39,587 nucleotides of DNA from Candidatus Omnitrophota bacterium (GCA_040754615.1 JBFMBZ010000051.1:1-39587); one strand, 5' to 3'; shown: positions 1,269-36,598, counted from the first letter of the stretch. Notes: generated from the sequence alone by a model not told the origin. Made by a program: numbers and translations.

Positions 1269-1420
1269 CCATAGGCCTATTAAGGCTTTTAATTTCGTCG
1301 AAAATTGCACGGACGTAAACCTAATTAACCATGAAATAGAGTTTAATTCATAGACGCCTACGGGCTACAACTTACCTCGGAATAGACGTAAGTTGATGCT
1401 CCGTAAGTTGTCTGCTCATT
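1269..1420 (-). repeat. Structured intergenic element, copy A (inverted relative to copy B at 36467)
   Basis: The reverse complement reads AATGAGCAGA-CAACTTAC...GTAAGTTG-TAGC-CCGTAG-GCGTCT-ATGAATT, matching copy B AATGAGCAGA-TAACTTAC...GTAAGTTA-TAGC-GGA-GCGTCT-GCGAATT. The outer boundary is uncertain. Confidence 0.75.
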
Positions 1421-35355: not shown

Positions 35356-36467
35356 GTAAAAAGAAGAGAAGTTCATTTTATATAATCCTGGCAGTAGCAA
35401 TCCTGATTGCTGCGATAGGGATTATCTCAATATTCAGCAGCACGTACCGTAAAGAAGGTAAAATGTGGCAGGTGATTTATAAACGCCAGATCCTCTGGGT
35501 TTCTCTGGGGCTGGTTATTTTCCTTCTGGTTTCTAATTTGAATTACCGGGTATTCTGGGTGCTGACATATTTCCTTTATGCCTTATCCCTGGCTTTTCTG
35601 CTACTGGTGTTTATTTTCGGCGCGGTGCGTTTGGGCGCGCAGCGCTGGTTACGGATAGCCTGGTTTAATTTTCAGCCTTCGGAACTGGCCAAGTTAATAA
35701 TGGTAATATTCCTTGCGCGCTATTTCAGCAGCAAGTCTATAAGGGATATCGTGCTTTCTACGAGCCATTTTGGAATTTTTAGAGGCATCATCCTGCCTCT
35801 TTTATTTATCAGCGTTCCTGCCATTTTAATAGCCGAGCAGCCGGATTTAGGAAGCGCAATCATGATTTTCCTGATTTTCTTTGCCCTGCTTTATTTAAGC
35901 CTGGTGAAGATTAAATACATATCTGTCTTTCTGGTAATTTTAGTGCTGCTTACCCCGTTATCATGGCTGGTATTACGCGACTATCAGAAAGAGAGGCTGC
36001 TGGTTTTTTTAAATCCTAACATAGACCCCCTGGGCGCGGGCTATACCGTAATTCAGTCAAAGATAGCCATTGGCTCAGGAGGCTTTTTTGGCAAAGGATG
36101 GCTTTCCGGGACACAAAGCCAGCTGCACTTTCTCCCTGAGTCCCACACGGATTTTATCTTTGCCACCTTTGCAGAGGAGTGGGGTTTTTTGGGCTGCGCG
36201 GTGTTATTGGCGCTTTACTGCCTTTTGATTTATCAGGGGATACTGATCGGCCAAAGGACAAATGATTATTTTGCGCGGTTCCTTGCCTTCGGCATTTCTT
36301 TAATGTTGTGTATCCAGGTTTTTATAAATATTTCAATGAACCTTGGCCTTGCCCCGGTTGTGGGCCTGCCGCTTCCGCTTATGAGTTATGGAGGCTCTTC
36401 GGTATTGGTGACTTTTATTGCCCTGGGGATATTGGCAAATATTGACAAGACCAGGGCGGTGTTCTAA
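35352..36467 (+). CDS. rodA: SEDS glycosyltransferase RodA
   Basis: GAQRW, FQPSELAK, QPDLGSA, LPESHTDFIF and SYGGSS motifs; follows mrdA. Confidence 0.96.
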   Translation: MSKKKRSSFYIILAVAILIAAIGIISIFSSTYRKEGKMWQVIYKRQILWVSLGLVIFLLVSNLNYRVFWVLTYFLYALSLAFLLLVFIFGAVRLGAQRWLRIAWFNFQPSELAKLIMVIFLARYFSSKSIRDIVLSTSHFGIFRGIILPLLFISVPAILIAEQPDLGSAIMIFLIFFALLYLSLVKIKYISVFLVILVLLTPLSWLVLRDYQKERLLVFLNPNIDPLGAGYTVIQSKIAIGSGGFFGKGWLSGTQSQLHFLPESHTDFIFATFAEEWGFLGCAVLLALYCLLIYQGILIGQRTNDYFARFLAFGISLMLCIQVFINISMNLGLAPVVGLPLPLMSYGGSSVLVTFIALGILANIDKTRAVF

Positions 36468-36587
36468 ATGAGCAGATAACTTACACAGTCCCCAGGACTG
36501 AGTAAGTTATAGCGGAGCGTCTGCGAATTTATCCCGAGCTTACGTAGAAAATTTCGTAAGAAATTTTCAAGCGTTTAAGCGAGGGAT
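36467..36587 (+). repeat. Structured intergenic element, copy B
   Basis: GCAGA-[TAACTTAC-A-CAGTCC-CCA-GGACTG-A-GTAAGTTA]-TA-[GC-GGA-GC]-G-TCTGC three-way junction, then a long hairpin ATCCC..GCTT..GAAAATTTC-GTAA-GAAATTTTC..AAGC..GGGAT. Confidence 0.8.
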
Positions 36588-36598
36588 GGGAGTCGTAA

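Follow-up and report, generated by a model that had tools for sequence, protein, structure and literature searches.

Elements of the REP/BIME/REPIN type pair with RAYT transposases (Y1 HUH enzymes) of Proteobacteria. The Correia/NEMIS elements of Neisseria and the Rickettsia palindromic elements, which resemble miniature inverted-repeat transposable elements (MITEs), are small and gene-less, have inverted ends and are inserted next to or into genes, and such MITE-like palindromic repeats can supply expression signals or reading-frame ends. In 2025, a further type was described, namely the Ssn nucleases with their NTS/SRM hairpin repeats, in which the repeats are partnered with small GIY-YIG nucleases and whose mobility is left as a hypothesis in the main text (Chenal et al., Nat Commun 2025, PMC11893778). 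By layout and single-strand logic, the Ssn system as presented there appears to be the closest described counterpart of the hairpin family reported here. We came to this family through two copies, A and B, in a stretch of 39,587 nucleotides (nt) from a Candidatus Omnitrophota bacterium (GCA_040754615.1, JBFMBZ010000051.1:1-39587), which was analysed as a whole and is called the window. An initial annotation of the window had proposed that these copies represent either a non-autonomous mobile element or a new family of non-coding RNAs. Our analysis indicates that copies A and B are probably gene-less, non-autonomous members of a modular family of hairpin-type mobile DNA, which is present across Omnitrophota and resembles the Ssn/NTS system.

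A family of covarying hairpins in Omnitrophota

The 18-nt head of the unit, AATGAGCAGAyAACTTAC, has exactly two matches in the window, one at 36467-36484 on the plus strand (copy B) and one at 1420-1403 on the minus strand (copy A), as compared to a chance expectation of 0.00 in 100 shuffles even when 2 mismatches are allowed. Hence, the two inversely oriented copies are real, but they are not a private pair; rather, they belong to a family numbering hundreds. In the window's own genome (G000; 1.6 Mb in 107 contigs, here given C numbers, other G numbers denoting relatives), about 15 copies were recognised with a loose motif. A covariance model, designated R1, was built from an alignment of 44 simple units (alignment A2), and its search of G000 returned 37 rows at E <= 1, with 27 distinct places at E <= 0.002. 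Of 41 genomes from the same order, 23 contain the exact pattern and none contains its reversed control, and the covariance model matched 98 of 151 genomes sampled across the phylum. When species-representative genomes were searched, the exact pattern occurred in at least 120 stretches. Among the matches listed, almost all titles read Candidatus Omnitrophota or Omnitrophica, the others being some 'uncultured Planctomycetia/-ales' and one metagenome-assembled genome of Nitrospirota. Thus, motif and covariance model agree that the element is multi-copy in its own genome and in relatives. It corresponds to no described Rfam family: Rfam 15 gave 0 matches at the gathering threshold in the window and only chance-level scores (E >= 2) at both copies. 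No description of the AATGAG hairpin family was found in the literature searched, and the words 'hairpin', 'palindrom', 'intergenic' and 'IS200' have 0 occurrences each in a preprint on complete Omnitrophota genomes (10.64898/2026.06.07.730766).

On the strand in which the copies were first read (R strand), a unit starts with AAT, a tandem G/A mismatch and a covarying stem of 4-5 bp (G-NNN-A), and continues inwards with an 8-9-bp AACTTAC stem, a second tandem G/A mismatch and a variable stem-loop. The 3' side alone carries either a bulge of 1-3 nt (T-N) or TA, a side hairpin and G. The asymmetric flanks AATGAG and GAATT are conserved among the units, and c(GNA)g triloops are the commonest hairpin loops. 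The pairing of the outer helix had to be corrected: 5'-G-NNN-(A) pairs with NNN-C, and beyond it AAT-GA faces GA-ATT.

Alignment A2 strongly supports this fold, with 96% of its 748 cells forming standard pairs; when the partner is shifted by 1-3 columns, pairing falls to ~30%. Double-sided changes number 53, as compared to 12.7 +/- 2.8 in shuffles (0 of 500 shuffles reach 53), so that the covariation suspected from two copies is borne out in the larger alignment. Three pairs covary without being broken in any unit (CG 32/GC 11/UA 1; GC 20/AU 12/CG 11/GU 1; UA 30/CG 12/AU 2). The last of these counts is that of the pair closing the AACTTAC/GTAAGTT stem across the 44 units, which is T-A in copy B and C-G in copy A, as had been noted initially. 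Predicted stability favours the R strand in 55 of 68 units when RNA parameters are used and in 64 of 68 when DNA parameters are used. Because pairing is almost exclusively of the Watson-Crick type and the strand asymmetry is conserved, a DNA hairpin fits these data better than a selected RNA, although this is no proof. G-U pairs are scarce on either strand (33/1579 and 42/1402, respectively), and wobble pairs were uninformative as a test for the transcribed strand. Resemblances to the hammerhead, the k-turn, group II domain V and attC were dropped, as spacing and core residues do not fit, Rfam being the only tool test in this respect. In one unit (L041:1501-1556), the loop region is reverse-complemented relative to the arms, as if the palindromic arms had allowed inversion.

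Modular elements at gene boundaries

The units combine into larger elements. A three-hairpin form consists of H1, H2 and an inverted, H1-like H3, with the AATGAG termini pointing outwards and with H2 often being CCCTTGACA...TGTCAAGGG. In the two-hairpin form, to which copy B belongs, the unit is joined to a hairpin of the type CCC-GA-GC...GC-GA-GGG; this form occurs in both orientations, being reversed relative to copy B at C40, C91:26315, C91:20870 and C4. Inverted pairs around a middle hairpin are found at C104, C26, C18 and C91:24795 of G000 and in G001. Where near-identical copies occupy unrelated loci (G001, G022), their identity is bounded by AATGAG on one side and by the opposite end of the element on the other. 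That is, terminal inverted repeats are present, and the AATGAG/AAGTGAG and CTCATT/CTCACTT termini together with the inverted H1/H3 delimit the identical segment. Head-to-tail tandem arrays of two or three units also occur (L122 in G022:C103, G188:C1:544290-544507, L297).

In occupied gaps, the AATGAG end always points towards the flanking gene. All four units of G000 that follow a gene overlap its stop codon with this end, the stop codon of ribD being the TGA inside AATGAG. The same end adjoins tRNA 3' ends and, reading the sequence by eye, follows a TATAAT box common to G000 and G019. Among 136 distinct units, 86 have their end 1-30 nt before a start codon, 15 are adjacent to a stop codon (12 of them overlapping it), 8 are ambiguous and 27 are neither, which places copy B in the minority orientation. 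Spacing of the start-adjacent units is bimodal, with 37 units at 1-4 nt and 34 at 11-15 nt, and a Shine-Dalgarno (SD)-like motif is present in 41 of the 86. Judged by eye and with the origin unplaced, the 53 units of the complete genome G188 gave no clear switch of strand bias between replichores. The idea that GGGATwAATTC is a -10 box, which would make the hairpin a stabiliser at the 5' terminus of the mRNA, was dropped since the copies read have no consistently spaced -35 box. At G000:C18:13360-13900, a three-hairpin element begins immediately after a tRNA gene and stops 3 nt short of the start codon of a short gene (read as rpmG, with secE-nusG following it); here the repeat alone joins a tRNA gene and a protein gene.

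Occupied and empty orthologous junctions

Copy B is a lineage-specific insertion of 131 nt between the stop codon of rodA and the start codon of a radical SAM gene. In 27 of 29 relatives' loci, rodA and the radical SAM gene keep their synteny, and in 17 of these 27 the gap measures -12 to 38 nt, as compared to 131 nt (TAA to ATG) in G000; in G022 (TAATG) and G008 (TGATG), stop and start even overlap. Larger gaps are present in the remaining 10; in G012, one of these, a further member of the family lies flush against the stop codon, with the same orientation (40.2 bits). The other nine gave no match to the unit model, and several of them read as other hairpin-forming repeats. Several repeat families seem to use the rodA-radical SAM junction as a general landing site; the different repeats seen in other genera (L245, L252, L254, L255, L264) include GTGAC-rich and AGCTGATAGC-type palindromes. 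Upstream of rbfA, the position of copy A, neither motif nor covariance model detected a unit in any of the 29 relatives, so that empty sites exist for both copies of the window. A further case is the rnfA-rnfB junction, which is occupied in G000 and empty in G015 and G016 (...TTTTAAATGG...). The junctions allow for a target duplication of 0 to ~3 nt; exact ends and duplication cannot be placed because the empty sites, reading TAATG or TAAATG, already resemble the terminus of the element.

Taken together, copy number, covarying stems and empty orthologous sites fit the initial proposal of a REP/REPIN-like, non-autonomous mobile element with selection acting on its structure. This interpretation was largely right.

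A small GIY-YIG nuclease gene is the candidate partner

As the initial annotation had stated, the window contains no gene for a cognate enzyme. When nuclease and transposase genes flanked by copies were sought in relatives, a nuclease emerged, but no Y1 transposase. In five relatives' loci (L149, L154, L234, L318, L327), an open reading frame (ORF) of the GIY-YIG type lies between the H2 stems, with inverted units on either side. This nested gene encodes a single-domain protein of 76-92 amino acids (aa) and is located inside the loop of H2. The covariance model had 22 matches in 99 GIY-YIG loci (248 kb) as compared to 4 in 58 control loci (191 kb), and in three of the 99 (L149 of G001, L154 of G032, L234 of G189) the ORF is bracketed by inverted units, the order being unit, GAATT, H2 5' stem, ATG...ORF, H2 3' stem, AATTC, inverted unit, CTCATT. 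Loci L318 and L327 were found among 80 loci chosen solely for carrying a unit and account for 2 of the 3 GIY-YIG genes there. Gene-carrying and gene-less copies are linked by their arms: the H2 stem of L149 and L234 is of the same type as in gene-less copies, and the type CCCTTGACA of gene-carrying copies is common to gene-less ones in G001 and at C104 and C18 of G000. At the loci examined, the GIY-YIG nuclease was the only gene found between these ends, and a transposase was not found there.

The nested ORFs score 47-67 bits on the Pfam GIY-YIG model, while NCBIfam gave nothing specific; the nearest sequences in the PDB are the UPF0213 proteins 1YWL and 1ZG2. Searches with fixed-word motifs had been falsely negative (0/30, then 0 of 70 GIY-YIG loci in all) because the arms of the gene-carrying copies use variant box sequences, which the covariance model detected; likewise, a motif check of five unit-rich genomes gave no doubly flanked ORF among 13 recognised. 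The hairpin CCCGAGC..GCGAGGG was rejected as a marker of the GIY-YIG gene, as only 3 of the 31 ORFs recognised have it in their vicinity. Small GIY-YIG genes of another kind directly adjoin tRNA genes (L053, that is G000:C9:3268-3510 and flanks, L162, L150, L224). Downstream of them lie a hairpin unit and, beyond it, a repeat of the tRNA 3' end (clear in L162, L150 and L224), and this element looks like one that targets tRNA genes. At C9 of G000, a D-arm-like word, GGTAGAGCGAGTGG, is present on both sides of the GIY-YIG gene.

The two copies in the window

According to Pfam, the neighbours of copy B are genes of the FtsW/RodA family and of the radical SAM type, and those of copy A are a PolyA_pol/CCA-type gene and rbfA. 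Each copy thus occupies a gap between housekeeping genes of the same strand, as the initial annotation had it; the features are compiled in Table 1.

Table 1. Coordinates of the hairpin elements within the window
Feature	Position	Strand	Remarks
Copy B, whole two-hairpin element	36467..36598	+	fills the gap from rodA stop to radical SAM start
Copy B, hairpin 1 ('R' unit)	36467..36529	+	covariance model R1 36.9 bits, E 3.4e-8
Copy B, hairpin 2 (middle-hairpin type)	36533..36586	+	CCC-GA-GC...GC-GA-GGG; from folding
Copy B, right border, TGGGAGTCGTAA	36587..36598	+	SD-like GGGAG 8 nt before radical SAM ATG; second TAA
Copy A, hairpin unit	1346..1420	-	R1 16.9 bits, E 0.038
Copy A, remaining gap filler	1269..1345	-	between stop of CCA-type gene (1266-1268) and unit

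Copy B overlaps the rodA stop codon (36465-36467) by 1 nt and ends one base before the radical SAM ATG (36599). Its hairpin 1 consists of AAT-GA, P1 (GCAGA), P2 (TAACTTAC), a 17-nt loop hairpin and GTAAGTTA, followed by TA, the side hairpin and G, and then by TCTGC and GA-ATT. Within hairpin 2 there is a tandem G/A mismatch, and GTAA closes an inner stem of 9 bp (36547-36568); the module recurs at C40, C91:26391 and C67 of G000, in both orientations. The unit of copy A reads AATGAG-CAGAC-AACTTAC ... GTAAGTTG-TA-GCCCGTAGGC-G-TCTAT-GAATT, and its AATGAG end is 3 nt away from the ATG of rbfA (1424), which is on the other strand. As reported initially, the side arm has a GNA loop in both copies (GC-GGA-GC in B, GCCC-GTA-GGGC in A, each between TA and G), and the loops of the units are unrelated in sequence. 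The downstream hairpin ascribed to both holds in full for copy B only; in copy A the corresponding AATTT..AAATT hairpin (1306-1291) is weaker, with ~5 bp, and shares the gap filler with an AGGCCT-centred palindrome.

Copy B folds with -30.4 kcal/mol when DNA parameters are used (z -7.45 relative to shuffles) and with -52.4 kcal/mol when RNA parameters are used (z -7.4). For copy A, the fold is less favourable (z -3.1 to -3.5), and part of the outer stem has decayed. In our reading, copy A is an older, partly decayed unit, whereas copy B is the H1+H2 form. The 5' arm of copy A is repeated within its loop. In the subtype with GCAGA stem and side arm, the loop repeats a part of the 5' arm (CTTACG), so that two mutually exclusive hairpins are possible; this subtype comprises 1346-1420 of the window, G000:C26:3427-3504, C18:13793-13870 and units of G022 and G021. 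The minimum-energy fold of copy A uses the alternative hairpin.

How the element may spread, and what else could explain it

On the model of SsnA and its NTS hairpins, the nuclease may recognise the folded single strand of the arms and nick there, whereupon repair or copying would spread the element, and gene-less copies might be mobilised in trans. Insertions could persist as the termini would supply stop codons on one side (TAA, or the TGA inside AATGAG), with an SD/start context being left or supplied on the other.

Several points weigh against mobile DNA of this kind. There is no clear target duplication, the junctions being ambiguous as outlined above. No nested GIY-YIG copy was detected in G000 by tblastn, and the two small GIY-YIG genes of this genome (81 and 85 aa), which are 35-46% identical to the nested ones, are unflanked by units. 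Nesting is rare, with three of 99 GIY-YIG loci flanked on both sides, and the excess of units is modest in the 41 relatives (5 of 70 GIY-YIG loci as compared to 2 of 58 control loci). Moreover, small GIY-YIG genes and units are only weakly associated across genomes, the former occurring in 20 of 23 unit-bearing genomes and in 11 of 18 genomes that lack units, and G035 has 8 units and no small GIY-YIG match. Some gaps are filled in more than one genus, namely a helicase leader (G000 and G019) and the ilvC-leuA gap (G000 and G010), which points to host-level selection or hot spots. Finally, the orientation bias of the 136 units, with 86 start-adjacent as compared to 15 stop-adjacent ones, is strong and leaves a host RNA role open.

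A more specific proposal, possible but doubtful in our view, is that of a new class of operon-junction elements with a minimal GIY-YIG nuclease, which would home to stop-start junctions and be neutral for expression. A stop codon would come from one terminus and an SD/start context would be left or supplied by the other, and the complementary termini would fold the insert such that the upstream stop codon and the downstream start codon come to lie side by side and translation stays coupled. If true, mobility of Ssn-like nuclease/hairpin systems would for the first time have genomic evidence behind it, and the elements would be a natural example of a translationally transparent insertion.

Alternatively, the hairpins could mainly serve the host as RNA signals at gene boundaries, perhaps as co-opted mobile DNA, which stabilise or process the flanking cistrons of operons or hold stop and start together for coupling. 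Much of the placement would suit such a role, namely the CTCATT ends shortly before start codons with their bimodal spacing and SD-like motifs, the overlap with stop codons in 12 of 15 stop-adjacent units, the vicinity of tRNA 3' ends and of the TATAAT box, and the mutual complementarity of the termini AATGAG and CTCATT. In addition, the copies that share the helicase leader and ilvC-leuA gaps in different genera carry compensatory differences. However, most relatives have empty orthologous gaps with overlapping or abutting genes, which makes such a signal dispensable. The same two-hairpin element is found in both orientations to transcription, and features of the R strand are kept in copies that would be transcribed as the opposite strand. 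The rarity of G-U pairs on both strands is likewise unlike selected RNAs, and there is no match in Rfam. We therefore consider it unlikely that RNA signalling is the main function; a secondary role at the RNA level, as a stabiliser, processing site or stop-start pairing, remains open.

It is rather improbable that a Y1 HUH transposase (RAYT/TnpA), encoded at another place in the genome, moves the elements as hairpins of the REP/REPIN or IS200/IS605 (PATE) type; HUH/Y1 transposases were one of the two enzyme classes named in the initial annotation, the other being integron integrases. Folded asymmetric hairpins, inverted doublets and the lack of a clear target duplication would be in agreement with such an enzyme, and Y1_Tnp matches are present in 30 of the 41 relatives and four times in G000, including one intact RAYT-like ORF of 225 aa. 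However, 0 of 33 Y1_Tnp loci (100 kb) hold a unit, be it by motif or by covariance model, and no such flanking inverted repeats were seen around the Y1 genes of G000. Presence of Y1 does not track the units either (17 of 23 genomes with units, 13 of 18 without), G022 having 8 units and no Y1 match, and the bases 5' of the terminus differ among copies (TA, TT, TC) instead of forming a single fixed target word. The four matches in G000 are at C82:55904-56581 (L018), C17, C46 and C80; besides the intact ORF there is a second, partial copy at a contig end, and neither is flanked by the AATGAG repeat.

An independent small RNA gene or riboswitch-like leader family, which the covarying stems and the duplicated 5' arm of copy A's subtype with its alternative pairings might suggest, is very improbable, as dozens of copies per genome lie next to unrelated genes and in both orientations, the loops are wholly variable with no conserved unpaired core resembling a ligand pocket, pairing is nearly exclusively Watson-Crick on both strands, orthologous sites are empty and Rfam has no match, which also speaks against the new non-coding RNA family of the initial annotation.

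Comparison with known systems

Mobile hairpin DNA with a small nuclease as partner, the reading we prefer, can be set against the described systems. PATEs of the IS200/IS605 type share with the present family the asymmetric hairpin ends, the absence of an obvious target duplication and the single-stranded logic; however, in the elements described here the left end lacks a fixed target word, and at the loci examined neither TnpA nor TnpB lies between or beside the arms. The syntenic housekeeping genes on either side argue against integron attC cassettes, no search for an integrase having been made. With the MITE-like repeats, the family has in common that small gene-less elements with inverted ends lie beside genes, but no parent of the DDE type and no clear target duplication were seen, and three separate hairpins take the place of one long terminal inverted-repeat stem. 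REP/BIME/REPIN elements are closest in genomic behaviour: they are extragenic palindromes, non-autonomous, arranged in mosaics of alternating orientation and in inverted doublets, and from the intercistronic gaps in which they are located they can affect mRNA. Nevertheless, the present family fails the RAYT test, no Y1 link having been found in 33 loci, its units are longer, with covarying stems and side arms, and it is spread phylum-wide rather than being species-specific.

The Ssn/NTS system, as presented in the main text of its description (PMC11893778), shares more. In both cases, many dispersed hairpin repeats with orientation-specific flanks are located around genes, most copies are without a gene, and a single-strand-specific fold is implied. 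In both, a single-domain GIY-YIG gene of ~90 aa can be found between repeats in the order repeat-gene-repeat, here in five relatives. In contrast, the NTS consensus shares no boxes with AATGAG..AACTTAC..GTAAGTT..GAATT when compared by eye, and the arms are compound hairpins of 50-120 nt here as compared to ~28 nt in NTS (PMC11893778). Further differences from the system described there are that the gene resides inside the loop of a third, middle hairpin, that the elements sit flush at stop-start junctions and that the nested proteins are nearest to UPF0213 among solved proteins. Omnitrophota are not mentioned in the main text of that article, whose supplementary tables may list such genomes.

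At the level of the window, the result is modest, namely two gene-less copies of the family. What the family as a whole offers beyond the Ssn work is the comparison of occupied with empty orthologous junctions, gene-carrying and gene-less forms with common arms, and a marked preference for the few bases between a stop codon and the next start codon in very compact genomes. It thereby makes testable both how such elements spread and how operons tolerate a structured insert of 130-200 nt between coupled genes.

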